Shown piece after piece: positions 3,315 to 36,028 of a DNA stretch of 64,000 nt. The first letter of the stretch is position 1. Each line of letters opens with the position of its first letter. The stretch lies in assembly GCA_963807605.1 (NCBI GenBank), contig CAWECG010000001.1, positions 154,620 to 218,619 of the forward strand, written 5' to 3'. The notes beneath the pieces were generated by a model. The model had not been told where the DNA came from. It was given only the letters and a program-made list of their open reading frames with translations, and ran no database searches. This DNA is from Candidatus Bathyarchaeota archaeon (GTDB lineage Archaea > Thermoproteota > Bathyarchaeia > 40CM-2-53-6 > RBG-13-38-9). The position numbers and the translations under genes are program-made.

Positions 3315-3315
3315 A

Positions 3316-9296: not shown

Positions 9297-9352
9297 AAAA
9301 CTCTTTATTAGAGTACGATATGATGTTTAGGCAACATGGCAGGCTATGAAAA

Positions 9353-11225: not shown

Positions 11226-11241
11226 GGAGAAAAGAAGAACG

Positions 11242-12303: not shown

Positions 12304-12308
12304 GAAAA

Positions 12309-12482
12309 ACACGCGCGCGCTGTGAAAAGGAAGACGACACGAAGTGGACGAATGCAGCTAACGCAATTGAGGAAGCCTTCGTCAACAATCTAGAACAAGG
12401 CGTCTACACACCTGATCTTGGAGGGAAGAGTAGAACAGCGGAAGTTGGAAAAGCAATAGCACAACAAATAATCGAGGGATAA
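12309..12482 (+). pseudogene. leuB: C-terminal remnant of the native leuB-like dehydrogenase
   Basis: It encodes ...TKWTNAANAIEEAFVNNLEQGVYTPDLGGKSRTAEVGKAIAQQIIEG*, an IPMDH/IDH C-terminus, with host-like codon usage. Reading frame 0 matches the N-terminal remnant. The stop lies 2 nt before the leuA ATG. Confidence 0.55.
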
Positions 12483-12484
12483 GA

Positions 12485-14011: not shown

Positions 14012-14055
14012 GCACGACACTTCAGAGCTTCCAGAAAGATAGACAGTGACTCATT

Positions 14056-17302: not shown

Positions 17303-17317
17303 TCGCCCCAGATCCTC

Positions 17318-18124: not shown

Positions 18125-18836
18125 TCATTGCAGCCTCCAGGGCCTCTTTCAAAGTGAACTTGTTCTCGTATAGTGCCGTACCCAAGATTACGCCTTGAAC
18201 ACCTATCTTTGCTAGAGCGCGTATATCCTCCGGGCTACTTATTCCTCCTGAGGCTATCACAGGAATCTTCAGTTGGCGGACAAGCCTCTTTGTGTCGTTG
18301 AGCGCCGGGCCGCCTAATGTCCCATCCGCATTGACTGAGGTGAAGATTACGGATCCGACACCTATCGCTTCCAGTTTCTGTGCGACTTCAATATACTCAA
18401 GAGAAGTCTTGCTCCTCCATCCCTCTATTGCTGGGCTGCCATTCTTGACATCTATGGCTGCGGCAACTCTGTCCTTGCCGAAGATGGAGGCGGCTTCTGA
18501 AACAAGTTCAGGCTTTCTGATGGATGCCGTTCCAAATATGATTCTTGTAACGCCGAGGTCTAGGACCTGCCTTGCCTTCTCAATCGTTCTTATTCCGCCT
18601 CCAACCTCGGTCTTGATCTGTACCGACTTCACGATTCTGCTTATGGTCTTGGTGTTCTCTCCGAGACCTAAGGCAGCGTCTAAGTCAACTATGTGAAGCA
18701 TCTCAGCACCCTGTGCTTGAAAGAATCTGGAAGCCTCTGATGGATCCTCATAGTATTGTTTGGTTCTCGAAGGATCTCCCTGGAAAAGTCGGACGCATCT
18801 TCCGCGCATAAGATCGATAGCTGGAATTACTATCAC
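18114..18836 (-). CDS. hisA: ProFAR isomerase
   Basis: VIPAIDL...GG HisA signature. 240 aa. Confidence 0.9.
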
Positions 18837-18844
18837 AGGTTATA

Positions 18845-19453
18845 CTACTTCCTTATCACCCCGACGAAGTTTCTAAGTACTGTCAAACCAGCCTGTGAGC
18901 TCTTCTCGGGGTGAAATTGGGTGGCAAACACGTTTCCCCTCTCAAGAATTGAAGGAAACTCCGTTCCGTATTCTGTCTTTGCAACTACGTCGCCCTCATC
19001 CTCCGGCTTCGCAACGTAGGAGTGAACAAAATAAGCATATGAGTTATCTGGAACTCCCTCAAGAATCGGGCTTTTTCTAATTATCTCGATATTATTCCAT
19101 CCAATTTGGGGAAGCTTAACGTTCGTCGGCAGCTTGACTACCTCTCCTTTTAGAAGATTTAGGCCAGGAGTTACTCTGCCCTCATAGCTCTTTGTGAACA
19201 AGAGCTGGAGACCGAGGCATATCCCCAACAGTGGCTTTCCATTCTTGACTTCCTGAATCAATACGTCTTCAAGTTTTGAGAGGTTCTTCTTTGCTTCTGC
19301 GAAAGCGCCGACTCCAGGCAGAACTATGGCATCAGCACTTCTTACCTTTGCAGGATCGCTTAGGATCTCAACCTCAGCTCCCGCTTTCTCGAGGCCTTTC
19401 TTGACGCTATACAGATTTCCAACGCCGTAGTTGACGATGATTACTAAAGTCAC
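18845..19453 (-). CDS. hisH: imidazole glycerol phosphate synthase glutaminase subunit
   Basis: Class I glutamine amidotransferase with catalytic Cys in GICLGLQ. 202 aa. Confidence 0.9.
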   Translation of the reverse strand: MTLVIIVNYGVGNLYSVKKGLEKAGAEVEILSDPAKVRSADAIVLPGVGAFAEAKKNLSKLEDVLIQEVKNGKPLLGICLGLQLLFTKSYEGRVTPGLNLLKGEVVKLPTNVKLPQIGWNNIEIIRKSPILEGVPDNSYAYFVHSYVAKPEDEGDVVAKTEYGTEFPSILERGNVFATQFHPEKSSQAGLTVLRNFVGVIRK

Positions 19454-19454
19454 T

Positions 19455-20033
19455 CTATAGTTCGCCTTTCGTGCTAGGAATAGTCTTGCGGGCTCTTAGT
19501 TCTAATGAGCATGCTTCCCTTAGCGCTAAAGCTAGAGCCTTTGTTGAAGCTTCTACCTTGTGATGATCGTTGGTTCCGTATAAAGCTGTCACATGGATGT
19601 TCGACTTAGATGATTGTGCCAGAGAAACGAAGAAATGATCTATGTCCTCAGTCTTCAAGTCCTCAATTTCATTCGACTGAATTTTCAGATCGATACTTGG
19701 ATAGGCTCTTCCTCCGAGATCGATCACTGCTCTAGCCAGCGAATCGTCCATTGGTACATGTGCTGAACCGAATCTTCTTATGCCCCTCTTGTCTCCTAGA
19801 GCTTTGTTTACGGCTTCTCCGAGTGCAAGTCCAATATCTTCTGACAGGTGGTGTTTGAGGTCTCCGGAGGCCTTTACCTCCAAGTCTATGAGCGAGTGTC
19901 TGCCGAGAGTAGTCAGTAGATGATTAAGGAATCTGTTTCCCGTCTCCACCTTGACGTTTCCTTTACCGTCCAGGTTAAGTCTCACTGAGATCTTAACCTC
20001 GGCTGTCTCTCTCTTGACTGCTACTTTTCTCAA
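19455..20033 (-). CDS. hisB: imidazoleglycerol-phosphate dehydratase
   Basis: IGPD His-rich Mn motifs. 192 aa. Monofunctional, with no HAD phosphatase domain. Confidence 0.9.
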   Translation of the reverse strand: MRKVAVKRETAEVKISVRLNLDGKGNVKVETGNRFLNHLLTTLGRHSLIDLEVKASGDLKHHLSEDIGLALGEAVNKALGDKRGIRRFGSAHVPMDDSLARAVIDLGGRAYPSIDLKIQSNEIEDLKTEDIDHFFVSLAQSSKSNIHVTALYGTNDHHKVEASTKALALALREACSLELRARKTIPSTKGEL

Positions 20034-20054
20034 TTTCCATGCCTTCCCATTCTG

Positions 20055-21242
20055 TCAAAGACTGCTGGTATCGAGTTCGCATCTCTTATTATTACTTCGA
20101 CCCCAAGTTCCTTGAACCTGTTTTGCAGAGTATTCATAGTTGGTGAAGAAGATAGCGTGCCTATGAAGAGTATATTCTTTGCCTCGAATCTCCTGAGCAT
20201 TTCTGGTCATCAAGGCATCTGCGAACGTATCTCCCACGTAAGCTACAGTCCGACAATCCTTGCAGAATCCTTCTAGAAGAGCTACGAAGGCTCTTGCGTC
20301 TGGCTTCCCGAGAATTGAATTGGATTCCAAGTTTCTCGATGCTCTCATGATGTCCTCGTTGAAGAAAATAGCTCTCTCGTCGAAATAGCCAAGAAGGTTG
20401 TGTTTCTGCAGGATATAGATGCCTTCATTCCTGGGTCTTTCTGAGTACAGCGCCATAAGGCCAAATCTCGACCTCACCTTCTCCAATGTCTCAAAGGAGG
20501 GTATTCTCGTTTCGTTGTCTATCAGACCCTCACCGAAGTCAAAGAAAGGCTTCTTGCCAGAGAATTTTTGGTATAATGTCCGCCCCAAATATGTCTCATC
20601 GAACAACCTCCTGAGCAAATCCTCTCCATCGACACTGAATGGACAGAGGCTCTTCACATTCTCAAGCATGGGCTCACTCAAGGCCAAGTTTTGGCTGATC
20701 CCTTTCAAAATTGGGAGGGACATCTTCTCACTGAATGTCTCCGATAGACTGTTGAGGCCTAGTAGTGAATCGGACTTCATCCTCTCTAGGTATGGGATAT
20801 CTATCCCCATTTGTCCTGATTTCCCTCCTAAATCCCTCAGTCTGCTCACAATATTTCTTAGGTCTGAAGGAGAACGCACTTGATCCTCGTCAGCAGATGC
20901 AGGCTTAACCCAACCTTCGAGCAGGCGTACTATCAATCCCAAATAGTAAGTGATCAGCGCGTAAGTTAGATTCCAATCGTTATTGAAGGCACCAGTATTC
21001 TTCATCTTCTGAATGTCCTCTTGTGTTGCCAAGCGACCTTCTTGTCCCTTAAGTCCGACGAGTTCAAGAAAGAAGTAATCGACTGAACGGGCTATCGCTT
21101 GCCTGTATGAGTCTCTGTCTGAAACTATTACTCCGTCACAGTCAAAGATCAGCTTCTCAACTTCTAGGAGTAACGGGATTGCGTCGTCCCTGCATAGAGT
21201 CAGCTCATCACCGAGAGTATGGTATGACTGTCGGAGCTTCAA
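20055..21242 (-). CDS. HAD-superfamily hydrolase with large cap domain, embedded in the his operon. Candidate histidinol-phosphate phosphatase
   Basis: HAD motif I FDCDGVIV, motif III GKPDARAF and motif IV YVGDTFAD. 395 aa. It sits between hisB and hisC and overlaps the hisC stop, so it is translationally coupled. Confidence 0.65.
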   Translation of the reverse strand: MKLRQSYHTLGDELTLCRDDAIPLLLEVEKLIFDCDGVIVSDRDSYRQAIARSVDYFFLELVGLKGQEGRLATQEDIQKMKNTGAFNNDWNLTYALITYYLGLIVRLLEGWVKPASADEDQVRSPSDLRNIVSRLRDLGGKSGQMGIDIPYLERMKSDSLLGLNSLSETFSEKMSLPILKGISQNLALSEPMLENVKSLCPFSVDGEDLLRRLFDETYLGRTLYQKFSGKKPFFDFGEGLIDNETRIPSFETLEKVRSRFGLMALYSERPRNEGIYILQKHNLLGYFDERAIFFNEDIMRASRNLESNSILGKPDARAFVALLEGFCKDCRTVAYVGDTFADALMTRNAQEIRGKEYTLHRHAIFFTNYEYSAKQVQGTWGRSNNKRCELDTSSL

Positions 21243-22321
21243 ATTAGGATGCGCCTTAATTCCCGCAGGAACCTCTCATTCAGAGGCCGCGTCCCAACGG
21301 TAACCCTCAGACAGTTGCGAAGCAGAGGGATGCTCCCTCTGTCTTTTATCAGGACTCCTTTCTGCCTTAACTCAGACTGGATCTGTGATGACGTTTTTGC
21401 GCCCTCGACTCGAAATAGGATGAAGTTTGCGTCTGATGGGAATGGGGTTACCCCTCTAAGCTGTTGAAGTTGATCTCTCAGCCACTCTCTTTCTTTCTTG
21501 ACAGCCTCCCAACTTTTCTTGAAGTAATCGCATCTTCGAAGTGCTTCCACTGCTAATTGCTGTGCTACAGCGCTTACGTTGAACGGGTGGACGGTCTTCT
21601 TGATTCCGTCCACTAATTCCTGATCGGTTATGAGGTATCCGATCCTTACTCCAGCTAAACCATAGGCCTTAGAGAAGGTTCTGAGAACAACAAGGTTGTC
21701 ATATTGATCTGCCCACTTTAGAACAGAGTATCCTGAAAACTCTGCATAAGTCTCATCGATGACTATAGTTGTCTGGCATTTGCTAAGCAGTTCTTCTAAA
21801 TCTCTCTCCTCAAACTGGTTTCCCGTCGGGCTGTTAGGAGAACAGATGAAAAGAAGTCTAGCCTCACTAGAGGCTTTTATCAACGCATCCATGTCTAGGC
21901 TGAAATCTGGTTTGAGCCTGACCTCGACTTTCTGACCTCGACATAGCTGTGTATAATACGTGTACATGAAGAATGTCGGCTCAGCTACAACAACCACCGA
22001 TCCATTGTCTATTATAGTCCTAGTTAACCTGTCGAGAACATCATCTAGACCGTTCCCTACAAAGATACGTGATGCCTCTATATTGTAAAATTTCCCAATA
22101 GCCTCGACTGCAAGCCTCGCATGAGGCTCGGGATATTCTCTCGGGTCTATTCTCCTGAGTGCTGCACCGAACATCTTCGTCAATACTCCCTTCTCAATCA
22201 ATGGGTTCTCGTTTAGGCTCATTCTGACAAGGTCCGGAAGGGCTTCAGTTGGGAAGTCCTCATCAAGTCTGTAAGGAGATATCTCCAAGAGGTCCTCTCG
22301 GATTACTTCTCTGAATCGCAT
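21239..22321 (-). CDS. hisC: histidinol-phosphate aminotransferase
   Basis: Class II aminotransferase with PLP lysine in SKAYGLAG. 360 aa. Confidence 0.9.
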   Translation of the reverse strand: MRFREVIREDLLEISPYRLDEDFPTEALPDLVRMSLNENPLIEKGVLTKMFGAALRRIDPREYPEPHARLAVEAIGKFYNIEASRIFVGNGLDDVLDRLTRTIIDNGSVVVVAEPTFFMYTYYTQLCRGQKVEVRLKPDFSLDMDALIKASSEARLLFICSPNSPTGNQFEERDLEELLSKCQTTIVIDETYAEFSGYSVLKWADQYDNLVVLRTFSKAYGLAGVRIGYLITDQELVDGIKKTVHPFNVSAVAQQLAVEALRRCDYFKKSWEAVKKEREWLRDQLQQLRGVTPFPSDANFILFRVEGAKTSSQIQSELRQKGVLIKDRGSIPLLRNCLRVTVGTRPLNERFLRELRRILI

Positions 22322-22323
22322 TT

Positions 22324-23631
22324 TCAGACACCTCTAGCCTTTATAGATTCGGAGTGGGCCCGCAGGTTCTCGATCTCGGCCAGCGTCACTGTAGTCTTAG
22401 CTAGTCTCTTCAATCCCTCTTTCGAGCAACGAACATAGCTAATAGTCTTGACAAAATCTTTGACTGAAAGCCCGGAGTAGTTCTTGGCGGATCCGCCTGT
22501 TGGCAGGACGTGGTTTGTTCCTGCAGAGTAGTCGCCAACAGCGACTGGTGAGTATTGCCCCAAGAATATGAGGCCTGCATTTCTTATTTGTGGAAATAGT
22601 CTGGATGCATCTCGAGTCATGATGACTACATGTTCAGGTGCGATCAGATTTGTGAGTGTTGTGGCCTCTTCGAGATCGTCAACAATTATTATGATCCCCT
22701 TTTTGTCCAATGCGATTCTCGCGGTTTCGGATCCGAGGCCAATCTTAAGATTCTCACCTACTCTTTCTCTAACTTCGTTTGCGATTCTTTCGGAGCTGGT
22801 TAGCAGGATGCAAGTCGCGTTTTCATCGTGTTCGGCCTGCGCCAACAGGTCTGATGTAATGAATCGTGTGTTTGCGCTATCGTCTGCTATGATTAGTATC
22901 TCGCTTGGACCAGCGGGGAGATCCACCGAGACGCGTTCGCTCAAGAGTTGCTTGGCGGCTGTCACGTAAATGTTTCCTGGGCCGACTATTTTTTCTACTG
23001 GACTTATCGTCTTGGTGCCGTAGGCCATCGCTGCAATAGCTTGTGCTCCACCGACGCAGAATATTTCGTCTACCCCTGCGATATCTGATGCCACAAGGAT
23101 ATACGGGTTAAACTTTCTTTTCGGGGATGGTGGGCTACACACAACAATCCTTTCAACTCCAGCTATCTTGGCAGGAATAGCACACATCAAGACTGACGAG
23201 GGATAGGAGGTCTTTCCCCCTGGGGCATAGATGCCAACTGATGATACTGGTCTTGTAGAAACCCCGAGTGTGACGCCTCCGCTAGACTGTTCAAATGCTA
23301 TGCGGCTGAACTGCATTTTGTGAAATCGCTTAATGTTAGAAGCCGCCTTTCTCAGTGCTCTGACTTCGACTTCTCGAGTTAGACTGTATGCTGCATCGAC
23401 GTCTTCTCGTGTAGCTCTTATCGTGCAAGAATCTAACCTTACCCCATCGAACTTTTGAGTGAACTCAAATAGAGCCTCATCACCGCGTGTTGATATCGAT
23501 TCGATTATGCCTTTGACATCTTCAGCCACACTTTCGAGTTCCAGTCGGCCTCTGTTGAGAATCTCATCGAGCAACTGGCCTTTCAATTCCCTAGATCTTA
23601 TTAAACGCATAATAATGAGCCTTCTAACCAA
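22324..23631 (-). CDS. hisD: histidinol dehydrogenase
   Basis: HisD Zn/NAD motifs. 435 aa, though the start may be an internal Met. Confidence 0.9.
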   Translation of the reverse strand: MVRRLIIMRLIRSRELKGQLLDEILNRGRLELESVAEDVKGIIESISTRGDEALFEFTQKFDGVRLDSCTIRATREDVDAAYSLTREVEVRALRKAASNIKRFHKMQFSRIAFEQSSGGVTLGVSTRPVSSVGIYAPGGKTSYPSSVLMCAIPAKIAGVERIVVCSPPSPKRKFNPYILVASDIAGVDEIFCVGGAQAIAAMAYGTKTISPVEKIVGPGNIYVTAAKQLLSERVSVDLPAGPSEILIIADDSANTRFITSDLLAQAEHDENATCILLTSSERIANEVRERVGENLKIGLGSETARIALDKKGIIIIVDDLEEATTLTNLIAPEHVVIMTRDASRLFPQIRNAGLIFLGQYSPVAVGDYSAGTNHVLPTGGSAKNYSGLSVKDFVKTISYVRCSKEGLKRLAKTTVTLAEIENLRAHSESIKARGV

Positions 23632-25088: not shown

Positions 25089-25379
25089 TAGGTTAACCTG
25101 CTATTGAATGGTTCATAGCTGTGTCTTTTGCGGACAGAAAAACTTTCTTGACAATCACTCCTATCGCAATCCAAGACCTGTAGTAATAGGAAACGATTTG
25201 ATTTAATAGTCGAAACATGATGGCTTATTCGTCTACTCTAAATGAACATGGGAACCTAATATCGGAACTTTGAGAGTCATCTGCTATTTGTTTTCATTGT
25301 CCCCCCGAGGCAAGCTTAAATAGAGTGGTAGATTCTAAAAGCAAGAAATCTGCAACATTTCTTGGATTGGGTGCTAGGT

Positions 25380-25829
25380 TTGGCCAGAATGTACACAAGC
25401 AAGCGAGGAAGATCCAGCTCCACTAGACCAATCAGCAAGAAACCTCCAAGTTGGTGCAAATACCGGGAAGAAGAGGTAGAAGCGATAATAATGAAACTTT
25501 CAAAGCAGGGAAACAATCCAAGTACAATAGGCACTATTCTCAGAGATACCTACGGCATACCGCTTGCTAGATCGATAACCGGAAGGAAGATGGGACTGAT
25601 TCTGTCACAGTCACAACTTTCTTCCACCATTCCTGAAGACCTTCAGATCCTTCTCGAGAAGGCTAAGGCGCTCGCCAAGCATCTTGAAAGGAATAGGCAG
25701 GACTCCGTCAACAAGCACGGCCTCACCCATGTTGAATCAAAAATACATAGACTCGTAAAATTCTACAAGTCTGAGGGAATCTTGCCAAAAGACTGGAAAT
25801 ACACCCACGTCGCAGCATCCGTCGAATAG
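25380..25829 (+). CDS. rps15: 30S ribosomal protein S15 (uS15, eukaryotic S13 family)
   Basis: N-terminus MARMYTSKRGRSSS...W matches archaeal S15P. TTG 25380 is in frame with the track ORF. About 150 aa. Confidence 0.85.
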   Translation: MARMYTSKRGRSSSTRPISKKPPSWCKYREEEVEAIIMKLSKQGNNPSTIGTILRDTYGIPLARSITGRKMGLILSQSQLSSTIPEDLQILLEKAKALAKHLERNRQDSVNKHGLTHVESKIHRLVKFYKSEGILPKDWKYTHVAASVE

Positions 25830-26098
25830 AAGGTCTTCTTAACGCATGCTCTCCAGAGCCTACTATAGGTAGCAATTTTAACCTCGCCACTGTAGCCGTA
25901 TTCATGGTTATTCTTTCTAAAACAGCATGTACTAGCTGCCGTTATGAGGATGCCTTATGTTCTGCTCGCAAACGGAACTATACGGATGGTCATTGTTTCC
26001 ATCGTGAAAAGATGGAAGATCAGGCAAATGCCTGGCTTTCGGGGACTAGTGAGGCTAAGACATGGGGAAAGGTGAAGGAGAGCGTACGTTTATGATCA

Positions 26099-26599
26099 TT
26101 ACTTCCCCGTTTGACTTATTCCCAGTTTCTTAGCTAATTCAGCAGTTTCGTCGTCGCTCATCCAGAACACCTTGAGGTAGTTGTAGATCTCCAAGTCACT
26201 CATCCCGATTTGTCTGGCCTCTTGAACCGTGCACTTGTAAGCCTCGATCTCCGTGGGTCTGTCCACATATTCGAAGCTGTCGTTGAAAAGCTCATTACCC
26301 TTCAAAAACTGCTTCACGTGGACCAACTCATGAATCAAATCCAAGTAGATCTCCTCTACATTACCATGCTTCAGGTAGTACGTACTGACGATCAAGTGAC
26401 CGTCCTCATCGCTTACCCCCATATACCCGTATCTTGACGAAAAGAACTCGACCTTCAGGTTGCGAAGCACCTCTTCAGTCTTATCGCCGAAAATGCGTCT
26501 AACCGCCTCAGCCTTCTCAAAGCCCTTAAAGTGATCAGAGAATCTGTACAGCGCCACCTTGACAGTTCGAGGAATCTCGACATCAGGCATATTCTTCAT
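26099..26599 (-). CDS. hypothetical protein with HExxH (HELVH) zinc-metallopeptidase-like motif
   Basis: 166 aa with HELVHVKQ...E motifs. No TM segment. Family not recognised. Confidence 0.4.
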   Translation of the reverse strand: MKNMPDVEIPRTVKVALYRFSDHFKGFEKAEAVRRIFGDKTEEVLRNLKVEFFSSRYGYMGVSDEDGHLIVSTYYLKHGNVEEIYLDLIHELVHVKQFLKGNELFNDSFEYVDRPTEIEAYKCTVQEARQIGMSDLEIYNYLKVFWMSDDETAELAKKLGISQTGK

Positions 26600-26900
26600 G
26601 AATTGTCTTCCTCAACCTTGATGAACACAAATCTCAGGTTCTGTAGGTTCCTTCTTCAGAAGAAACTAATGAGACTATGGATTGCTCCATGAGGTTCCTT
26701 CCCCAGCTTGGAAGGGGATCCTGCGCTGTGGATCTCTGGAGTCTTAAACACACAAGTTACAATACATATCTTTTAAAATGGGTCGACTGATAGTTCGCCA
26801 GCCACTTTACAACAGCCAGATCGCCAAACATGTGACGTTTGACCGACCAGGATCCCGCAAAATACAGATATAGCGTAGATGAGGAGTTCGTTGAACAGGA

Positions 26901-28331
26901 ATGCTTGATTCTCATAAGAAGCTCATAGACGAAGCTGAACGAGCTGCCGAGAAGATCAAAGATAACATATCTGAAGGATCTCGTATTGCGGTCGGTTGTC
27001 ACTTCGATGCTGACGGACTGGCTGCCGCCGGAATATTGGTGAAAGCGCTTTACAGAGCAGGTGCATCGTTTCATTTGAGGGTCTTGAAGCAGCTTGACCC
27101 GCAGGACATCGAGTTCTTTTCCAAATCCGCCTCTGATGCAGTGATCCTTGCGGACATCGGAAGTGGCTATCTTGATCTTCTGAAGGATCTAGCGAACTCA
27201 AAGGACGTCTTTGTCTTAGACCATCACCAAATCAATGGCGAGAACTTTGGGAGGCTCATACACGTCAACCCGCATCTATCAAACCTCGATGGAGGAAAAG
27301 AAGTGAGCGGCGCCGGAGTCTCCTACACAGTGGTAAAAGCGTTGGACCAGCAAAACATCGACCTGTCTCCCTTGGCGGTTGTAGGAGCTGTAGGAGATAT
27401 GCAGGATAAAAATGAAGGGAGAACACTTCGTGGATTCAATTCGCTTATAGTGGAAGATGCCGTCAAGTCAGGTCTTCTCAAAGTTGAGACGGACTTGATA
27501 ATCTACGGAAGAGAGACGAGGCCAGTCCACAAGGCTCTATCACATACAGTGAATCCATTTCTTCCCGGGCTGAGTGGACAGGAAGACAACTGTTTCGCAT
27601 TACTATCTTCATTGTCGATACCAATTAAGGTCGGCGACAGATGGAGAACTGTGGTTGAACTCTCTAGTGATGAAAAGAAGAAGATACTATCGGCTATAGT
27701 TGAAAAGATCACCTCTGGCGGTCTTTCAGGAGCCGTTGTCATGAACTTGATCGGAAGCGTCTATACGCTTCTTGGAGAAGAAAATTGGACTCCTACACGT
27801 GACGCGAGAGAATATGCCACATTGCTAAACTCCTGTGGAAGAATGGGCCATCCGTCGATTGCGATAGCTGTATGCATGGGAGAGCGAGGCCCTACAATCG
27901 CTGAAGCCAACAAGATCCTTTCAGAACATCGAAAAGCTCTGGCGACGTATATGACTTTGATAACAGAGAAGCCGTCTTCCGTAGAGAGTCTCGGGAGACT
28001 TTCTGTAATTCATGGTGAGGAGTATTTAAACGAGAATATGACTGGAGCTGTATCCTCCTTGCTGTCGTCATCTGAGACATTTGCTCCAGGCAAAGTGATC
28101 ATTGTTTGCGCCAAGACGAGAAATGGCGAGATAAAGATCTCAGCTAGAGCCACCGCGAAGATGGTTGAAAAAGGGGTAAACCTGGGTCACTCCCTCCAAC
28201 ATATCGCCGAGAAATACGGAGGAATTGGTGGCGGCCACAAAATTGCAGCCGGTGCCCAGATTCCTCAGCAGAGATTGAAGGAATTCCTCAAAGAACTCAG
28301 CGATGAGCTATCAAGGTTGCTTCAAGAGTGA
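26901..28331 (+). CDS. RecJ-like DHH/DHHA1 phosphoesterase (archaeal GAN/Cdc45-like nuclease)
   Basis: DHH motifs (HFDADG, DHH) and a C-terminal DHHA1 motif GGGHKIAAGA. 476 aa, a size typical of archaeal GAN. Confidence 0.75.
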   Translation: MLDSHKKLIDEAERAAEKIKDNISEGSRIAVGCHFDADGLAAAGILVKALYRAGASFHLRVLKQLDPQDIEFFSKSASDAVILADIGSGYLDLLKDLANSKDVFVLDHHQINGENFGRLIHVNPHLSNLDGGKEVSGAGVSYTVVKALDQQNIDLSPLAVVGAVGDMQDKNEGRTLRGFNSLIVEDAVKSGLLKVETDLIIYGRETRPVHKALSHTVNPFLPGLSGQEDNCFALLSSLSIPIKVGDRWRTVVELSSDEKKKILSAIVEKITSGGLSGAVVMNLIGSVYTLLGEENWTPTRDAREYATLLNSCGRMGHPSIAIAVCMGERGPTIAEANKILSEHRKALATYMTLITEKPSSVESLGRLSVIHGEEYLNENMTGAVSSLLSSSETFAPGKVIIVCAKTRNGEIKISARATAKMVEKGVNLGHSLQHIAEKYGGIGGGHKIAAGAQIPQQRLKEFLKELSDELSRLLQE

Positions 28332-28582
28332 ATATAACAATCAATATCCGCCTTCGAAACACACGATTGGCTAAGGCCCTCGCAAAGGCTCTTGAACCTG
28401 ATAATACGCTTGCTCCGTCAACACTGAGTGTAAAGACTTGGGCAAAGAAGGACATTGCAACAACATCGATAACCTGTAGAAAGAGCCTTGAAACATTCAT
28501 AGCAACCATAGATGACTTACTATTGTGTGCGGATGCGGCACATAAGACGCTGGAGGATGTTGAAACTGGTAAACGAGCTTAG
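28328..28582 (+). CDS. probable KEOPS subunit Pcc1-like small protein
   Basis: 84 aa with a Pcc1-like pattern, NITINIRL...AKALAKALEPDN...ATIDDLL. GTG start overlaps the upstream stop. Confidence 0.4.
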   Translation: MNITINIRLRNTRLAKALAKALEPDNTLAPSTLSVKTWAKKDIATTSITCRKSLETFIATIDDLLLCADAAHKTLEDVETGKRA

Positions 28583-28583
28583 G

Positions 28584-30140
28584 ATGTGCGCAAAGATCCT
28601 ACTGAGGTTTAGTGGAGATATCGAAAAGGCAAAAGAATCAATTGGCGAAGCGATTGAAGAAGCAAACAAGACAATCTTGATCAAAGGCGCACCCCAAAAT
28701 CAGGAAGCCGAGGCTGCAAGAATAATCACTTGGAATGTTAAAGGCTCGTCTCTAGAATTGGAGATCGATTCAGGGAGACTCGTCAGGGCAACCACTGCCG
28801 CCCTTAGGCTGCAAAAATTCTTGGGAAACATCTTAGGCAGAGACTTCAAGATTGGGATACGGGAGCTGAAGGCTGAGACGATTGAATTCTCGATTCAAAG
28901 CGATCATGAAATTGATCGCGAAGTAATTAATCGAATAAAAGCGATTCCAAATATCTCAAGTGTCAAGCATGAGGCTAACAGGGTAAGGATAACAATTGGC
29001 CAGATGAGTGAACACGATCTAAAGAACAACGTCCCTGACAGGCTCATAGCCAGGGCCAAGGATCTCTTGGTCAGCGCTCCAAAACCACTCACCCCCTTCC
29101 AACCGGTTCTTGTTGTAAAGAGGGGCGAGGTCAAAAAGGCGAGATTTGACAAAGATCCGATGCAGGTCGCCATAAATTTAGGATGGATCAAAGAATTCCC
29201 TGGACGCGGACAATGGATCTACACAACTCCCTACGCCCAGCTATTCGAGATCATAAGGGATAGTCTCATTGACGAAGTCGCAACTCATCTAGGCTTTCAA
29301 CCATTCATGCTTCCCAAACTGATACCATTAGAGATCATGAGGAAGATGCCAGGATACCTCGATGATATCCCTGAAGGAATGTACTATTGCTTTCCTCCTC
29401 CAAGAGACCCAGAAGCCTTCAGCACATTCAAGGAGACTCTGAAGCTTACAAAGGAGATATCCAAGGAGGAACTCAAGAAGGCCCTCAAAGATCCAGAGTA
29501 TGTGCTTGCTCCAGCCCAATGTGAACCATTCTGGCAGTTCTACGGAAAGGAGACCTTGAATCAGGACGATTACCCATACAAGCTCTACGACACCTCGGGC
29601 TGGACTTACAGATGGGAGGGAGGTGGGGTAGAAGGTATGGTGAGAGTACATGAATTTCAGAGGATCGAACTGACGTACCTCGGTACTCCAAAACAGGTGA
29701 TCGAGATTCGAGACGCCGTACTGGACAGGCTACTCAATGTTGCGGACAGAACACTTGATATGGAATGGAGGGTGACAGCGGCGATACCCTTCTGGGCACG
29801 TGAAGGAACCATAGAAATGAATATTCAAGACAGCGCGGAAGTACCTGCGTACGATCTTGAGATATATCTGCCATACAGAGGAGCCAGAGAGACATCCGAG
29901 TGGCTCGAAGTTGCGGGATGCTTCGTACACAAACTGAAATTCGTGGACAGCTTCGGTATACGCGAGATCAAGAATAGAGAGACCTGGACAGGATGCTCGG
30001 GCCTCGGCTTGACACGATGGGTCGCGGCCTTCCTGGCAACTCATGGCTTTGAACCAGAAGACTGGCCAAAGAATGTACAAGCCAACTTCAATGAGAATTA
30101 CAGGTTGCCCAAGAGTCTGCTCTGGCCACCGAAAAGATAA
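28584..30140 (+). CDS. serS: atypical (methanogen-type, zinc-dependent) seryl-tRNA synthetase
   Basis: Class II aaRS motif 2 (GMVRVHEFQRIE) and motif 3 (GCSGLGLTRW). The N-terminal domain is non-coiled-coil. Strings such as GRGQWIY, MYYCFPP, CEPFWQ and LPYRG match, from memory, the Methanosarcina-type SerRS with its Cys/Glu/Cys Zn site. Start inferred at ATG 28584, immediately after the pcc1-like stop; the track ORF starts at 28512. Confidence 0.6.
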   Translation: MCAKILLRFSGDIEKAKESIGEAIEEANKTILIKGAPQNQEAEAARIITWNVKGSSLELEIDSGRLVRATTAALRLQKFLGNILGRDFKIGIRELKAETIEFSIQSDHEIDREVINRIKAIPNISSVKHEANRVRITIGQMSEHDLKNNVPDRLIARAKDLLVSAPKPLTPFQPVLVVKRGEVKKARFDKDPMQVAINLGWIKEFPGRGQWIYTTPYAQLFEIIRDSLIDEVATHLGFQPFMLPKLIPLEIMRKMPGYLDDIPEGMYYCFPPPRDPEAFSTFKETLKLTKEISKEELKKALKDPEYVLAPAQCEPFWQFYGKETLNQDDYPYKLYDTSGWTYRWEGGGVEGMVRVHEFQRIELTYLGTPKQVIEIRDAVLDRLLNVADRTLDMEWRVTAAIPFWAREGTIEMNIQDSAEVPAYDLEIYLPYRGARETSEWLEVAGCFVHKLKFVDSFGIREIKNRETWTGCSGLGLTRWVAAFLATHGFEPEDWPKNVQANFNENYRLPKSLLWPPKR

Positions 30141-30417
30141 AGACAATCCAGGCAGACGCTAACGGTGGGCTAAGAAAATACCTTCATCAGAGGATCTAAA
30201 GCAAAACAATGCGCGCTCTTCTTGGAGGACGAAGTGACTACGAACCTCTAGGGTTCTGCCAAGTTGTCGGTTGATACGCCTCTAGAATTGAACTGTCAAA
30301 AATCGGTTGATGCAAGCGACCTTACCAAGTCTCTATCGGTTCGTCTAGTTTCTAACTCGTGTCAAAAATCATCGAGTGCGACACATGTTAAATCTGCATG
30401 TGGAGTGAATCTTAACC

Positions 30418-30762
30418 ATGGAAATCGGCAAGATACTAAAAGCAATTCTTGCGTCAATTGGCGACATCGCTTCTATTTCTTGGCTCCTAGTCTTGCTGGG
30501 AGTTATCCCAGAACCTATCTTTCATGGAGCTGAGTTCTTGGCAACATACTACCCATACTTCGTGCTTTCGGCACTGGCGATGTTCTTTTCGTTTACCCTT
30601 TGGCTGGGCTATCAGTTGGGTCTTTACAAAGAAAGAAGAAAGAAGGGGAGAAGTTCTCTCTACATCGGAGCGGCGCTTAAGGAGGGTCGAGATTATAGAA
30701 TCACAGGTCAAGTAAGATCGAAAGATGAGCAACATGAGTCAAGCAACGAGAAATCAAGTTAG
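30418..30762 (+). CDS. hypothetical small membrane protein
   Basis: 114 aa with two hydrophobic helices and a basic/acidic tail. Confidence 0.3.
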   Translation: MEIGKILKAILASIGDIASISWLLVLLGVIPEPIFHGAEFLATYYPYFVLSALAMFFSFTLWLGYQLGLYKERRKKGRSSLYIGAALKEGRDYRITGQVRSKDEQHESSNEKSS

Positions 30763-30990
30763 TTCCGCTCTTGTTCTTTCGAGTTTTGCGAGTTTCTTCA
30801 ATAGGACTAGGTCTGATTCGCACCCCTCGGTAAGCGCCTTCAATCCAAGCTTACGTATGCGTGTCAACACAACCGTGTAGCTCTTCAGCCGCTCACCTTT
30901 CAGATAGGCTTCCAGTACCTTGCGTTCAGGGGGGATACTGGAATGCGTTGGTAATGACTGCTGGTCTACAGGCGTTGCTCTTCTTCCTCA
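30753..30990 (-). pseudogene. small conserved-looking ORF (~78 aa) broken by a frameshift at a C7/G7 homopolymer (30916-30922)
   Basis: Minus-strand ATG at 30990 gives MRKKSNACRPAVITNAFQYPP, then a stop. The -1 frame continues as ERKVLEAYLKGERLKSYTVVLTRIRKLGLKALTEGCESDLVLLKKLAKLERTRAELT*. Removing one G/C of the 7-mer joins them. Confidence 0.3.
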
Positions 30991-31116
30991 TCGCAAAGGG
31001 TTACTATTGCTAAACACAAAGACCCTCTGAATTATCAACCGTTATTTTACAGCCACGAGAACTTACTGTATCAACCGCAGACTTTACAGAACCAACCTCT
31101 AGCAAACATTTTAAGG

Positions 31117-31812
31117 ATGGGCATTGTAGTAGCTCGAGCCAAGATCGAGGTCAAGTGTTTGTCGAAAGCTCCTGGAAGAATTCGTGATAAATGGCGCATG
31201 AAGGAGTGGTACCAAGTATTCACGCCATCCTACTTCGGAGAGTTGAATATTGCAAACATACCCTGCGCGGACCCATCTAAACTAGTCGGAAGGGTTGTGG
31301 AGAGCACACTCTACGAAATTACAGGAGACTTCTCCCATCAATCGATCAAGCTCTACTTCCTTGCAAAAGAAGTGAAAGGAGAAAAGATCGAGACAATACT
31401 CAAAGGACACGAATATTCCGCAGACTACCTCAGGAGTCTCGTGCGAAGAGGTAGCTCTAGGATAGACGGTATATTCAAACTAACGACCAAAGATGGATAT
31501 ACAAGCCGAATATCGGTAGTAGCCTTTGCGAAGGGCAGGATCAACATCTCACAGCAGCACACAATCAGGAGGATGATGCGAGAGGTTCTTGAAGAAAAAG
31601 CTAAGACTCTCAGTTACGACCAGCTTTGCCATGAGATGGTCCTTGGCAGCGTAGCAAAAGCAGGCATCGGCTCAGATATCTACAACCTCGCCAAACGTAT
31701 AAGCCCACTCCGGCATGTCGGAGTTAGGAAATCAAAATTGCTCTCTCTGCCAGTGGCAGCAACTCCTGAAGCGGCTGTGGCAAGTGTGGCAACCGAAGAG
31801 ACTCCCGCCTAG
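31117..31812 (+). CDS. rps3ae: 30S ribosomal protein S3Ae (eS1)
   Basis: The pattern RIRDKWRMKEWYQVFTPSYFGE...GRVVE is characteristic of S3Ae. 231 aa. Confidence 0.85.
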   Translation: MGIVVARAKIEVKCLSKAPGRIRDKWRMKEWYQVFTPSYFGELNIANIPCADPSKLVGRVVESTLYEITGDFSHQSIKLYFLAKEVKGEKIETILKGHEYSADYLRSLVRRGSSRIDGIFKLTTKDGYTSRISVVAFAKGRINISQQHTIRRMMREVLEEKAKTLSYDQLCHEMVLGSVAKAGIGSDIYNLAKRISPLRHVGVRKSKLLSLPVAATPEAAVASVATEETPA

Positions 31813-31925
31813 ACCTCTTCTCATCTCAAGGCGGAGATCCCTCTGCGAGGAGGATTTTGGCCTCCACATATGTCATAGTATACAAGATGTCGAAGACGAA
31901 AAGTGGACCAGTTCTGTGATATGAC

Positions 31926-33296
31926 TTGAAGGAGAAGCTCTTCGGATCATCCGGCGTCCGAGGTGTTGCTAACCTCGATCTAACCCCCGAGTTTGTACTC
32001 AGGTTTGGCCTCACACTAGCCAATTTTACGGCAGGCGGCAAGATAGCAGTTGGATTCGATACTAGGTCATCGAGCCAGATGGTTGTTCATTCCTTGATAG
32101 CGGGACTGTTGGCAGGTGGAGCTGAGGTTAAGAATCATGGTTTGATCCCTACACCAGTCTTGGCCTATTTGACCGCGGATGCAAAATGCAAGGCTGGTGC
32201 TATGGTGACTGCCAGCCATAATCCTGCCGACTACAATGGGGTGAAACTCTTCGATAAAGACGGAATGGCGTTTAATCATAACTTGGAGAACGAGATCGAG
32301 AGACGGTACAATTCGACTGACCTGAAGCGTGCGAGCTGGAGTGCACTTCGCACAGTCGAGACAGTGGACTCCACTAACCGGTACATCGAAATGATCAGAA
32401 ACATGGTCTTCATCGAAAAACCGTGGAAGGTAGTCGTAGACCCCGGATGCGGAGCTGCATACTCCCTAGGGCCTAGGTTGTTCCGCGAGCAAGGATGCAA
32501 AGTCCTGACTGTCAACGCTCAACCCGATGGATTCTTCCCCGGGAGAGATCCTGAGCCCAGCGCCGATTCACTGAATGTCTTATCAAGAATAGTTAAGGAG
32601 ACTGGCTCAGACGCGGGAGTAGCATATGACGGCGATGCCGATAGGATGGCCATTGTCGACGAGACAGGAGAATTGGTGCCTATGGACCAGTTGATAGCCG
32701 CTTACGGAGCCTATCTTGTATCCTTGAACGAGAAGACGATAGTTGTTCCAGTTGACGCATCGATGTGTATTGAGGAGAGTATCGTGGGCATCGGCGGGAG
32801 CGTCATCAGGACAGCCGTCGGTGACGTAAATGTCGCCGAAGCCGTACTAAAGCACAAGGCAGCGCTCGGAGCAGAAGCAAGCGGTGCTTGGATAAACCCC
32901 AACTATAGCCTCTGTGCTGACGGAATCCTCTCAAGCATGCTGGTCTTAGCTACAGTCTCAAGTCAGCGAGTCAACACAACCCTCTCCAAGTTCGTAAACT
33001 CGATTTCCCGATACCCAATACTAAGAGGCAAAGTCCCCTGTCCGGATGAGCTCAAGACCGAGGTTATGAACGAGTTTCAGTCAGAGCTTTTCAAAATCAT
33101 GCCTGAGAAGAGTGAAATTCTTACTATCGATGGCGTGAGAGCCGCTTCGGAAGATGGATGGATATTGATAAGGCCCAGCGGCACTGAACCGGTACTAAGA
33201 ATAACCGTTGAGGCCAAAGATCGCTCCAAAGCAGAACTGTTGATGACTCAGACTCTCGCGCTAATGCAGAACATGATCAAACGCTTATCCCACTGA
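31926..33296 (+). CDS. glmM: phosphoglucosamine mutase / phosphohexomutase
   Basis: KLFGSSGVRG, active-site TASHNP and metal loop DGDADR. 456 aa. Confidence 0.85.
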   Translation: MKEKLFGSSGVRGVANLDLTPEFVLRFGLTLANFTAGGKIAVGFDTRSSSQMVVHSLIAGLLAGGAEVKNHGLIPTPVLAYLTADAKCKAGAMVTASHNPADYNGVKLFDKDGMAFNHNLENEIERRYNSTDLKRASWSALRTVETVDSTNRYIEMIRNMVFIEKPWKVVVDPGCGAAYSLGPRLFREQGCKVLTVNAQPDGFFPGRDPEPSADSLNVLSRIVKETGSDAGVAYDGDADRMAIVDETGELVPMDQLIAAYGAYLVSLNEKTIVVPVDASMCIEESIVGIGGSVIRTAVGDVNVAEAVLKHKAALGAEASGAWINPNYSLCADGILSSMLVLATVSSQRVNTTLSKFVNSISRYPILRGKVPCPDELKTEVMNEFQSELFKIMPEKSEILTIDGVRAASEDGWILIRPSGTEPVLRITVEAKDRSKAELLMTQTLALMQNMIKRLSH

Positions 33297-33378
33297 GTCT
33301 ACTAAAGTTCTCTTGTTGAACCATCTCGATTAAGTTACAGAACAAGATGCAAGAACGTTGGTATAGCTGGTCTAGATT

Positions 33379-34671
33379 ATGAGAGCCGTCATCCTCGCCG
33401 CCGGTGAAGGAGTAAGACTAAGGCCGCTCACAGAGAACAGACCAAAACATATGATTCCGATAGCAGGCCGGCCACTTCTTCAACATGTTATTGAGGCCTT
33501 CAAACACAATGGTGTGCAGAAATTTACTATTGTTGTGGGATATCTGAGCGAGGTTATCGAGCGTTCCCTCTCTGATGGTCGTGGCCTCGGAGTTGACATC
33601 ACCTATGTTCATCAACGCAAGGCTCGAGGTACGGCTGACGCAGTTGCGCAACTACATGATCAGCTTGACGAGTCACGTTTCCTGCTGTGCTATGGCGACA
33701 TCTACGTCTCTCAGAGTGCCCTTGCGGAAGTTATGAAAGCCTTCAACGACAAATCAGTTGACGCCGCGATGGCTGTCGTAAAAGTCAAGGACCAAGAGCA
33801 CTACGGATTAGTCACAATCCACGAAGGATACGTAAAAGAGATCATCGAAAAACCGAAGCGCCCTTCGCCAGCTGGATTCGCCAACGCGGGCATATACGTC
33901 TTCGAAAAGAGCATATTCGATGGTGTAAAGAGGACGGCAAAATCCCCCAGAGGAGAACTTGAATTAACAGATTCAATAGCGAATCTCATAAGATCTGGCA
34001 TCAAGGTCAAACCAGTTCTAATAGACCAAAAGGACTGGCTTGACATAGGGCGTCCTTGGGATCTTTTTCAGGCCAATGAGAGAGCTCTGCAGGCGATCCA
34101 ACCCACCAAGGAAGGTTACGTCGAGAGTACTACGGTTCTGATGGGTCCCGTCACTGTGAAACCGGGAGTAAAGGTTCTTTCAGGATGCCGCGTGGAGGGT
34201 CCAGCATACGTGGGCGAAAGGTCTGTAATCGGTCCGAATTGCTACATCAGACCCTATACCAGCATCGGCCAAGACGTCAGAGTTGGAAACGGCTGCGAGA
34301 TCAAGAACTGCATAATCATGAATCGCACAAAGATACCGCATCAGAGCTACTTTGGAGACAGCATAATAGGTGAAGAATGCAATTTCGGTGCTGGAACTTT
34401 GACGGGAAACCTGCGACTTGATGAAAGGACTGTTCTAATGAGGATCAAGAGAAAGATTGTTGATAGTGGAAGGAGGAAGCTTGGAGCGATAATTGGAGAC
34501 GCCGTCAGCACCGGGGTAAACGTCAATCTTATGCCTGGCGTTAAAGTAGGTTCAAGAACAGCCATAGGCCCCGGAGTTATAGTATACAAAGACCTTCCCG
34601 CAAACGTCAAGGTTCTGCTAAAACAAACCACCGTAAAGAAGATGAGAAAAGAATCAAATGAAAAGGTTTGA
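33379..34671 (+). CDS. glmU: bifunctional sugar-1-phosphate nucleotidylyltransferase / acetyltransferase (archaeal GlmU-like)
   Basis: N-terminal AILAAGEGVRLRPLT nucleotidyltransferase motif and C-terminal left-handed beta-helix hexapeptide repeats. 430 aa. Confidence 0.8.
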   Translation: MRAVILAAGEGVRLRPLTENRPKHMIPIAGRPLLQHVIEAFKHNGVQKFTIVVGYLSEVIERSLSDGRGLGVDITYVHQRKARGTADAVAQLHDQLDESRFLLCYGDIYVSQSALAEVMKAFNDKSVDAAMAVVKVKDQEHYGLVTIHEGYVKEIIEKPKRPSPAGFANAGIYVFEKSIFDGVKRTAKSPRGELELTDSIANLIRSGIKVKPVLIDQKDWLDIGRPWDLFQANERALQAIQPTKEGYVESTTVLMGPVTVKPGVKVLSGCRVEGPAYVGERSVIGPNCYIRPYTSIGQDVRVGNGCEIKNCIIMNRTKIPHQSYFGDSIIGEECNFGAGTLTGNLRLDERTVLMRIKRKIVDSGRRKLGAIIGDAVSTGVNVNLMPGVKVGSRTAIGPGVIVYKDLPANVKVLLKQTTVKKMRKESNEKV

Positions 34672-34998: not shown

Positions 34999-35224
34999 GA
35001 AATCTGGCGCAGGTACCAAATAGTGTTGAGAACACCTTCTAACCATACTCCTTGCAGAACCTCTTCCTAGGAAGGTTTATCAAGAGATTTGCAGAAGTAC
35101 GCCATCATCTTCATGTAGGATGTAAGAATACCACATTCAATCACATTAGTGAGGACGCTTGAGTTCTTCCAATAGTCTCACAGGCAAGACGTTGCGCAAT
35201 CGAGGACAGGTTACAGAGCAGACG

Positions 35225-35623
35225 ATGCGCCAACTTGCATTCAAGTGGCGTAGAGATCCAGCTATTTTGCGCGTCGAGAAACCCACAAGGTTGGATCGCG
35301 CTAGAAGACTCGGTTACAAGGCCAAACAAGGCTTCACAGTCGTTAGAATCAGAATCCGAAAGAGTGGAGCTAGGAAGAAAAGGCCAACCTCAGGACGCAG
35401 ACAGAAAGCGATGGGTGTAAGAAAGATCAAGTGGGCCAAGAGTGGCAAACAGATTGCAGAAGAGAGGGTGGCCAAGAGATATCCGAACATGGAGGTGCTT
35501 AATTCATACTTCCTCTGGGCCGATGGCAAGTACCTCTGGACAGAGATCCTTCTTGTCGATCCAAGCCATCCTGCCGTAATGAGCGATCCTCGGGTTAAGT
35601 GGATTTCGAGAATCGGAGACTAG
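35225..35623 (+). CDS. rpl15e: 50S ribosomal protein L15e
   Basis: PTRLDRARRLGYKAKQGFTVVRIRIRKSG matches the L15e core. The ATG at 35225 is in frame within the track ORF 35159-35623. Confidence 0.8.
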   Translation: MRQLAFKWRRDPAILRVEKPTRLDRARRLGYKAKQGFTVVRIRIRKSGARKKRPTSGRRQKAMGVRKIKWAKSGKQIAEERVAKRYPNMEVLNSYFLWADGKYLWTEILLVDPSHPAVMSDPRVKWISRIGD

Positions 35624-35641
35624 CACTATAGGGAGCTCTTA

Positions 35642-36028
35642 TTGATGGAAATTCGGCCGAAAGTCGTCCGGAGACCGGTGACAATGCAGAGGAAGAGCCT
35701 TGGAAGAGGTTTCTCGAAGTCTGAACTCAAAGAGGTTGGACTTTCGAGTAGCACCGCGAGAAGATTGGGAATAGTGACTGATGATCGAAGGAAGAGTAAG
35801 CACCAGGTAAACGTCGATAGTCTTCAAGAGATGCTCAAGACTACTGGAAAAAGTATCCCTGAGCTGGTAAAAGAAGCAGCCCCTACGAGAATCCGTTTCA
35901 CGAGCGGACCTCATTATGGAAGGGCTCAGAGAGGATTAACTTCTTCGGGCAAAAGGATGCGTGGGCTTTTTAGGTCGAGAGGATCTAGAGGCACGCGTGG
36001 ATACAAATTCAAGAAGCTGAAACGCTGA
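35642..36028 (+). CDS. rpl13e: 50S ribosomal protein L13e
   Basis: GRGFSKSELKEVGL...ARRLGIVTDDRRKS is the L13e signature. This protein is restricted to TACK archaea. 128 aa. Confidence 0.7.
   Translation: MMEIRPKVVRRPVTMQRKSLGRGFSKSELKEVGLSSSTARRLGIVTDDRRKSKHQVNVDSLQEMLKTTGKSIPELVKEAAPTRIRFTSGPHYGRAQRGLTSSGKRMRGLFRSRGSRGTRGYKFKKLKR

Follow-up and report, generated by a model that had tools for sequence, protein, structure and literature searches.

The gene at 28557..30140 on the forward strand of the window (the whole 64-kb stretch of DNA that was analysed) is recognised, from its domains and profile matches, as encoding a type-2 seryl-tRNA synthetase (SerRS) and not the coiled-coil form of this enzyme. 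We propose that it is very probably the functional, zinc-dependent housekeeping SerRS of a Bathyarchaeia archaeon, inherited vertically within the Bathyarchaeia. What the results reported here show directly is the family of the protein, the conservation of its ligands, its fold, its place in the tree, and the synteny and composition of its gene.

The SerRS gene and its start codon

28557..30140, forward strand: type-2 (methanogen-type) SerRS gene, starting at ATG 28557 (527 aa) or ATG 28584 (518 aa), with a TAA stop at 30138-30140

The forward-strand reading frame is open without a break across 28512-30140 and ends in TAA. An earlier note on this DNA had begun the gene at ATG 28584, which gives a protein of 518 aa, and the residue numbers used below (Cys313, Glu362 and Cys471) are those of this form. 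The reading frame and the stop were borne out; the start, judged by the N-termini of homologues, is probably ATG 28557 (527 aa) instead, because in many homologues the column of 28584 holds no Met and the N-terminus lies further upstream. In a 17-sequence alignment, that column holds Leu, Ile or Phe in several homologues, and most N-termini lie 6-9 residues upstream. The start nevertheless stays uncertain, since the GGAGG at 28552-28556 is too close to ATG 28557 to be its ribosome-binding site. On the contig of the 95%-identical relative, the gene caller picked the equivalent of 28533 (535 aa). The choice has no effect on the fold, because the first 8 residues of the 527-aa AlphaFold model are unstructured.

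With a GC content of 0.48 and a GC3 of 0.53, the gene has the same composition as the adjacent genes. Its dN/dS against the 95%-identical relative is 0.31, which equals that of the adjacent phosphoglucomutase-family (PGM) gene. A pseudogene was also considered, and is ruled out by the intact reading frame, the invariant ligands and this dN/dS.

Domain content, profile scores and fold

28599..29060, forward strand: N-terminal tRNA-binding domain (PF18490, tRNA_bind_4), residues 6-159 of the 518-aa form, replacing the coiled-coil arm of canonical SerRS
29490..30041, forward strand: class II aaRS catalytic core (PF00587), residues 303-486, with motif 2 MVRVHEFQRIE and motif 3 GCSGLGLTRW

The N-terminal domain matched its Pfam profile with an E-value of 9.5e-40 over positions 8-156 of 162, and the same region has pLDDT values mostly between 80 and 96 in the AlphaFold model; the catalytic core matched PF00587 with an E-value of 7e-13. 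The Seryl_tRNA_N coiled-coil domain was absent from the protein in the Pfam scan. Class II motifs 2 and 3 are present, as the earlier note had read, and their R, E, G and R columns are invariant in alignments of 17 and of 43 sequences. The six strings that it had quoted were all found: GRGQWIY at aa 207, MYYCFPP at 266, CEPFWQ at 313, RVHEFQRIE at 354, LPYRG at 429 and CSGLGLTRW at 471.

The type-2 models won when the protein was searched by HMM against the SerRS families, a check that the earlier note had suggested. NF002120, the NCBIfam model of type-2 SerRS, aligned over its full length with 546.2 bits (E 6.8e-164) and so did TIGR00415 (serS_MJ), with 452.2 bits (E 2e-135). The canonical model TIGR00414 aligned with the core alone and scored 28.6 bits, against a cut-off of 301.65. 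Both type-2 scores lie below the equivalog cut-offs (611 and 489.55, respectively), a shortfall that reflects how far the Bathyarchaeia clade has diverged from the methanogen seeds. Because scores fall below these cut-offs, NCBI names several members of the clade 'aminoacyl--tRNA ligase-related protein' or 'hypothetical protein'. The NCBIfam cut-offs thus miss members, and the Bathyarchaeia clade of type-2 SerRS is under-called.

A sequence search of the PDB returned 3w3s_A, the type-2 SerRS of Methanopyrus kandleri (E 6.2e-118), and then 2cim_A, the SerRS of Methanosarcina barkeri (E 1.6e-90), both aligned end to end. With these structures, the two Pfam domains and the two NCBIfam models in agreement, the identification of an atypical, zinc-type SerRS at 28584-30140 in the earlier note stands. 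An AlphaFold model of the 527-aa form, built from the 43-sequence alignment, has a mean pLDDT of 84. Its nine best PDB matches are type-2 SerRS chains of M. kandleri and M. barkeri, matched over their full length with E-values of 1e-52 to 2e-39 and TM-scores of 0.66-0.79. For carrier-protein ligases and canonical SerRS, the overlap with the model is limited to the core, with a TMq of about 0.45-0.46. The window SerRS is an added member of an already known and structurally solved family.

The scores under the equivalog cut-offs and the vague NCBI names given to several clade members could also point to a paralogue with another job, for example an amino acid:[carrier protein] ligase or a synthetase whose specificity has changed, acting beside a canonical SerRS; indeed, the carrier-protein ligases are true homologues of the SerRS core. 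We consider this very unlikely, as the protein has the complete tRNA-binding domain that the ligases lack, the ligase model NF005479 gives 80.1 bits against a cut-off of 357, and the structural match to the ligases stops at the core. Moreover, the serine and zinc ligands are invariant, and the position of the gene among housekeeping genes for translation and replication is kept across phyla. Carrier-protein ligase as such was rejected as an identity for the protein on domain content, the tRNA-binding domain being present.

The zinc site and a proposed mode of action

29520..29522, forward strand: zinc ligand 1, Cys313, codon TGT, aligned to M. barkeri Cys306 (2cim_A residue 326); invariant column C337 in ORF numbering
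29667..29669, forward strand: zinc ligand 2, Glu362, codon GAA, aligned to M. barkeri Glu355 (2cim_A residue 375); invariant E386 in ORF numbering
29994..29996, forward strand: zinc ligand 3, Cys471, codon TGC, within motif 3, aligned to M. barkeri Cys461 (2cim_A residue 481); invariant C495 in ORF numbering

The zinc ligands of M. barkeri SerRS, reportedly described by Bilokapic and colleagues in 2006, are said to be Cys306, Glu355 and Cys461. The 2cim chain has 522 residues against about 502 in the native protein, and we take it to carry some 20 extra N-terminal residues. The three window residues were paired with positions 326, 375 and 481 of 2cim_A through a HMMER alignment, assuming this chain offset of +20. 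The Cys/Glu/Cys ligands that the earlier note expected of the atypical enzyme are therefore all in place, and no variation is seen at their columns in the alignments of 17 and of 43 sequences, which cover Bathyarchaeia, Hadarchaeota and methanogens. [quoted passage not shown]

If the solved homologues are a guide, the mixed alpha/beta domain at the N-terminus would bind tRNASer, and the class II core would activate serine with ATP. The active-site Zn2+, held by Cys313, Glu362 and Cys471, would coordinate the amino group of serine. The conserved architecture and ligands let us infer, with high confidence, serylation activity and zinc dependence for the protein, which may also be the sole SerRS of its genome. 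M. barkeri is said to carry both SerRS types. In the 64-kb window, tblastn with E. coli SerRS gave no match at E <= 10, and no canonical serS was seen there; against the collected SerRS loci the same query matched type-2 cores only, with no canonical serS.

Distribution and phylogeny of type-2 SerRS

A protein database search returned 448 relatives, the best being a 95%-identical protein from a JGI metagenome, with the annotation 'seryl-tRNA synthetase'. About 80 clusters at 76-50% identity come next; they carry Bathyarchaeia or Bathyarchaeota labels wherever they are named, and are followed by Hecatellaceae, 'Nitrososphaeria' and Hadarchaeum. An exact-sequence look-up of the window protein gave no record. 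Scanning one genome per GTDB species yielded 134 type-2 SerRS loci; the best 80 of these comprise some 36 from Bathyarchaeia (Hecatellales included), about 8 labelled 'Nitrososphaeria/Nitrososphaerota' and about 32 from Hadarchaeota, the rest being a few labelled merely 'uncultured archaeon' or 'Methanobacteriota archaeon'. The family is rare: of 1.84 billion cluster representatives (50% identity), only 57 matched at E <= 1e-30, about 30 of them over the full length. Those with names come from Bathyarchaeia, Caldarchaeales, Thermoproteota, Aenigmarchaeota, Methanopyri and Methanofastidiosa, MAG labels that need caution. The representatives of 390-460 aa with weak matches were examined as candidates for canonical SerRS and have the class II core only and no Seryl_tRNA_N. 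According to these searches, type-2 SerRS is present throughout the sampled Bathyarchaeia, as the normal form for the lineage and not as an oddity of the window genome.

In the NCBI taxonomy, Bathyarchaeia belong to the kingdom Thermoproteati and Hadarchaeota to Methanobacteriati. The TACK-like host deduced in the earlier note agrees with this placement of Bathyarchaeia and with two further features of the window:

35642-36028: L13e gene
268-5800: lysine/arginine-type biosynthesis genes

The phylogeny of atypical SerRS that the same note had called for was built as a distance-based neighbour-joining tree (101 sequences, 498 columns, Kimura distances, 100 bootstraps), and the named methanogen enzymes included for comparison were obtained by searching with the M. 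kandleri sequence. The Bathyarchaeia form a clade with 99% support in which the 'Nitrososphaeria'-labelled sequences are nested, and the window protein lies deep inside it, neither as an outlier nor grouped with methanogens. Hadarchaeota form a clade of their own (100%), as do class I methanogens together with Methanonatronarchaeia and Methanopyrus (100%). The M. barkeri enzyme is a separate branch, the longest in the tree. The deep nodes are weak, the one joining Bathyarchaeia and Hadarchaeota reaching 70%.

These data bear on a view of the rare SerRS that is well established in the literature. Fournier et al. 2015 saw it only in methanogens and proposed its transfer from an ancient, now unsampled lineage; a 2024 specialist review describes it as 'confined only to methanogenic archaea', and a 2026 review places it in 'some euryarchaeota'. 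On this methanogen-restricted distribution, reviews from 2015 to 2026 base the scenario of a transfer from an extinct pre-LUCA lineage. The earlier note had followed the same view in restricting the form to methanogens and a few relatives, which does not hold for an enzyme distributed across Bathyarchaeia and Hadarchaeota. It is only against the textbook confinement of the rare SerRS to methanogens, which current sequence data contradict, that the window protein is an outlier. Among open-access full texts, we found none that reports the type-2 enzyme from Bathyarchaeia or Hadarchaeota; an earlier mention elsewhere is possible.

Since reviews confine the enzyme to methanogens, its occurrence in a TACK genome seems foreign at first sight, as if the window genome had recently taken the gene from a methanogen and become an outlier within its own lineage. 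The earlier note had offered precisely this choice between a phylogenetic outlier and a horizontal transfer event. We regard a recent transfer as extremely improbable. The protein is 37-42% identical to the methanogen enzymes in the 43-sequence comparison (30% for M. barkeri), against 50-95% to dozens of Bathyarchaeia proteins, and its well-supported clade stands apart from the methanogens. Moreover, the composition of the gene equals that of its neighbours, and its locus, a conserved housekeeping one, is identical across the class Bathyarchaeia. Vertical inheritance within Bathyarchaeia accordingly remains the reading that we favour.

A fixed position in an old gene cluster

25362..25829, forward strand: gene for ribosomal protein S15, on the upstream side of the conserved S15-RecJ-Pcc1-(SerRS)-S3Ae neighbourhood
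26901..28331, forward strand: archaeal RecJ/Cdc45-family DHH nuclease gene (NF053576, 494 bits, cut-off 360), heading the RecJ-Pcc1-SerRS run
28328..28582, forward strand: KEOPS subunit Pcc1 gene, 84 aa, GTG start (NF011470, 34.6 bits, cut-off 27)
31117..31812, forward strand: gene for ribosomal protein S3Ae, on the downstream side of the same neighbourhood
30252..31093, strand not assigned: MITE-like insertion of 842 bp in the SerRS-S3Ae spacer, with 26-nt terminal inverted repeats and a 9-bp target duplication AACCTCTAG

The earlier note was right to place a RecJ homologue upstream of SerRS and a Pcc1-like gene abutting or overlapping it. The last 4 nt of RecJ are also the first 4 of Pcc1 (GTGA), and Pcc1 ends 1 nt short of ATG 28584, or overlaps SerRS by 26 nt if the latter starts at 28557. 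The SerRS gene, which has the same orientation as RecJ and Pcc1 and is closely spaced with them, has very probably been passed down vertically in Bathyarchaeia in a pan-archaeal S15-RecJ-Pcc1-S3Ae neighbourhood. Rfam and ARAGORN detected no RNA genes, tRNASer included, in the 64-kb window. The MITE-like insertion, which is missing from the 95%-identical contig, lies outside the SerRS gene and yet breaks up the cluster.

To follow synteny, the window proteins were compared by tblastn with every SerRS locus collected. Over 21 kb, gene order on the contig of the 95%-identical relative agrees with that of the window, and S15-RecJ-Pcc1-SerRS-S3Ae recurs in almost every Bathyarchaeia locus long enough to show it, often followed by PGM/PMM and NTP-transferase genes. 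Loci labelled 'Nitrososphaeria' read S15-RecJ-SerRS-S3Ae, Pcc1 being undetected there by tblastn. In Hadarchaeota, every locus has SerRS-S3Ae-PGM, with the NTP-transferase next in most; S15-RecJ adjoins SerRS on its upstream side in about eight loci and is 2-5 kb off in others, and Pcc1 was detected directly upstream in some. A closed Methanonatronarchaeum genome has the complete run, S15-RecJ-84-aa ORF-SerRS-S3Ae. Traces of the arrangement also occur in other methanogens: a weak Pcc1 match immediately 5' of SerRS in Methanothermobacter marburgensis, a 73-aa ORF, without annotation, at the corresponding place in Methanobacterium ferruginis, and SerRS-S3Ae on a Methanopyrus-like contig. The Methanotorris and Methanocaldococcus loci retain no part of the S15-RecJ-Pcc1-SerRS-S3Ae order. 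By these comparisons, the rare SerRS always occupies the same place of an ancient cluster where the order is kept, and it does so in lineages of both archaeal kingdoms. Makarova et al. (PMC3307487) had already inferred that the last common ancestor of archaea possessed an S15/RecJ/S3/Pcc1 neighbourhood; the T. kodakarensis example in that paper consists of S15, S3 and Pcc1 with GAN, and SerRS is unmentioned.

The Bathyarchaeia ancestor may have received the SerRS gene from a Hadarchaeota-like or methanogen-like euryarchaeal lineage, possibly with its flanking genes, so that it displaced the canonical SerRS while the function stayed the same. Such an ancient en-bloc transfer is a serious alternative, which we hold to be possible, if on the unlikely side. 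The Crenarchaeota, Thaumarchaeota and Korarchaeota sampled in 2015 have the common SerRS, Bathyarchaeia and Hadarchaeota group together, albeit weakly, and both have the downstream S3Ae-PGM-NTP-transferase order. However, SerRS sits between Pcc1 and S3Ae inside the very neighbourhood inferred for the last archaeal ancestor (PMC3307487), and the same placement is found in Methanonatronarchaeum and, in part, in Methanobacteriales and on the Methanopyrus-like contig. Because this placement recurs across lineages, shared ancestry is simpler than repeated insertion at one site. Furthermore, the neighbours are as divergent between phyla as SerRS itself (identity is about 30% for RecJ, about 40% for S3Ae and about 47% for SerRS), and MAGs labelled Caldarchaeales, Nitrososphaeria and Thermoproteota also have the type-2 enzyme.

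Beyond vertical inheritance within Bathyarchaeia, we advance a broader idea, tentatively and as a rather doubtful one at present. Type-2 SerRS might be the ancestral archaeal enzyme, and not a methanogen speciality spread by transfer. An early archaeal ancestor would already have had its gene in the S15-RecJ-Pcc1-S3Ae cluster, with Pcc1 on one side and S3Ae on the other. The gene would have been kept at this locus in Bathyarchaeia, Hadarchaeota and Methanonatronarchaeia, with fragments of the arrangement left in class I methanogens, and the common SerRS would have taken over in other archaea.

For the window itself, the gene is a routine housekeeping synthetase of a characterised family. The wider significance lies in the record that it corrects: public data place type-2 SerRS throughout Bathyarchaeia and Hadarchaeota, and MAGs bearing the labels Caldarchaeales, Nitrososphaeria, Thermoproteota and Aenigmarchaeota have it as well; in several phyla it is always at one ancient locus. 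This distribution offers a testable handle on the time at which the two SerRS forms diverged, and on the form used by early archaea.

Comparison with known enzymes

The closest characterised enzyme is the type-2 SerRS of M. kandleri (PDB 3W3S), which resembles the window protein end to end (query 5-515 against chain 9-526, 39% identity, TM 0.72). The two have FPGRGQWIYT, PAQCEPF, SGWTYRWEGG, EFQRIE and the zinc ligands in common, and differ in motif 3, which reads GCAGLG in M. kandleri and GCSGLG in the window protein. In contrast to M. kandleri, the window host is a non-methanogen of the kingdom Thermoproteati, and its sequence belongs to a separate, well-supported clade. The M. barkeri SerRS (PDB 2CIM/2CJ9/2CJA/2CJB), the enzyme in which zinc-dependent serine recognition was established, has the same two-domain fold as the window protein (TM 0.66-0.79); its Asn435/Ser437 region is unconserved both in the window protein and in M. 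kandleri. The amino acid:[carrier protein] ligases, such as Bradyrhizobium Bll0957 (PDB 3MEY/4H2S), have a homologous core derived from the lineage of type-2 SerRS (sequence match E about 1e-10, fold match E about 1e-15), but they are without the N-terminal tRNA-binding domain, which is complete in the window protein. Finally, canonical SerRS (TIGR00414; E. coli, Aquifex 2DQ3) shares with the window protein the class II core and, presumably, the reaction, whereas the coiled-coil N-terminal arm is present in the canonical enzyme and missing from the window protein.

Distribution and annotation of type-2 SerRS

The methanogen-type seryl-tRNA synthetases of the Bathyarchaeia clade fall below both NCBIfam type-2 SerRS cut-offs (the window protein, 28584-30140, was the one scored), and therefore clade members appear in public records as 'aminoacyl--tRNA ligase-related protein' or 'hypothetical protein', as is the case for the homologous proteins P0008, P0013, P0027, P0059, P0078, P0086, P0087, P0388, P0397 and P0401. 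This annotation gap conceals the true distribution of the enzyme. Type-2 SerRS was also found in metagenome-assembled genomes labelled Nitrososphaeria, Caldarchaeales, Thermoproteota and Aenigmarchaeota (loci L034-L041 and L067; proteins P0086, P0087, P0401, P0248 and P0417). In the neighbour-joining tree of 101 sequences, those labelled 'Nitrososphaeria' form a monophyletic group (100%) that falls inside the Bathyarchaeia clade. The same tree places P0013, a type-2 SerRS that is 61% identical to that of the window and comes from an 8.7-kb contig deposited as '[Eubacterium] cellulosolvens', among the Bathyarchaeia. This record is probably archaeal contamination in a bacterial assembly.

Ten proteins of 390-524 aa matched the window SerRS over its catalytic half alone, with E values of 1e-14 to 1e-26 (P0299, P0311, P0317, P0319, P0320, P0323, P0325, P0362, P0385 and P0386). 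They have the class II core, but no SerRS N-terminal domain, of either the type-2 or the canonical form, was found in them. They form an uncharacterised set of type-2-SerRS-like core proteins with other N-terminal regions.

Gene content and a candidate mobile element

The remaining window content (268-5800, 6023-15186, 16634-23631 and 35159-36028) fits a Bathyarchaeia chromosome. Besides an amino-adipate/LysW-type cluster, it comprises leu/ilv genes, a minus-strand his operon and the genes for ribosomal proteins L15e and L13e. The cluster encodes a semialdehyde dehydrogenase, an amino-acid kinase, a class III aminotransferase, an M20 peptidase and a fusion of a homocitrate-synthase-like protein with an AsnC ligand domain. 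Three features lie in the spacers around the SerRS gene and its neighbours:

26099-26599, minus strand: 166-aa ORF between S15 and RecJ, opposite in strand to both
30252-31093: putative MITE-like insertion of 842 bp in the SerRS-S3Ae spacer
30418-30762: hydrophobic 114-aa ORF within the insertion

Neither ORF had a Pfam match. The 166-aa ORF is 93% conserved in L001, the contig carrying a 95%-identical relative, and was not detected in any of the other fetched loci (tblastn, E <= 1e-5). The 842-bp insertion is missing in L001. It ends in 26-nt terminal inverted repeats (GGTTCTGCCAAGTTGTCGGTTGATAC...), contains subterminal TCGGTTGAT repeats and is flanked on either end by a 9-bp direct duplication, AACCTCTAG; the S3Ae gene starts 23 nt past its end. 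The same terminal repeat adjoins a DUF4277 + DDE_Tnp_1 transposase in the metagenome contig L091, which suggests that the insertion derives from an IS4/IS1634-type element and is non-autonomous (MITE-like).

Conserved gene order around type-2 SerRS

Window positions 25362-34671 were compared with the relatives' loci L003-L082, L084, L085, L087 and L088. The order S15 - RecJ - Pcc1 - type-2 SerRS - S3Ae is common to nearly all Bathyarchaeia loci of sufficient length, often followed by PGM/PMM and NTP-transferase genes. It is largely kept in Hadarchaeota and complete in Methanonatronarchaeum, with an 84-aa ORF at the Pcc1 position. Methanothermobacter retains the Pcc1-SerRS pair (the Pcc1 match being weak), Methanobacterium ferruginis has a small unannotated ORF where Pcc1 would be, and a Methanopyrus-like contig retains the SerRS-S3Ae pair. 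The S15/RecJ/S3/Pcc1 cluster has been inferred for the archaeal ancestor (Makarova et al., PMC3307487). Since the gene order recurs, whole or in part, across Bathyarchaeia, Hadarchaeota and some methanogen lineages, the rare SerRS has a fixed slot inside this old cluster.
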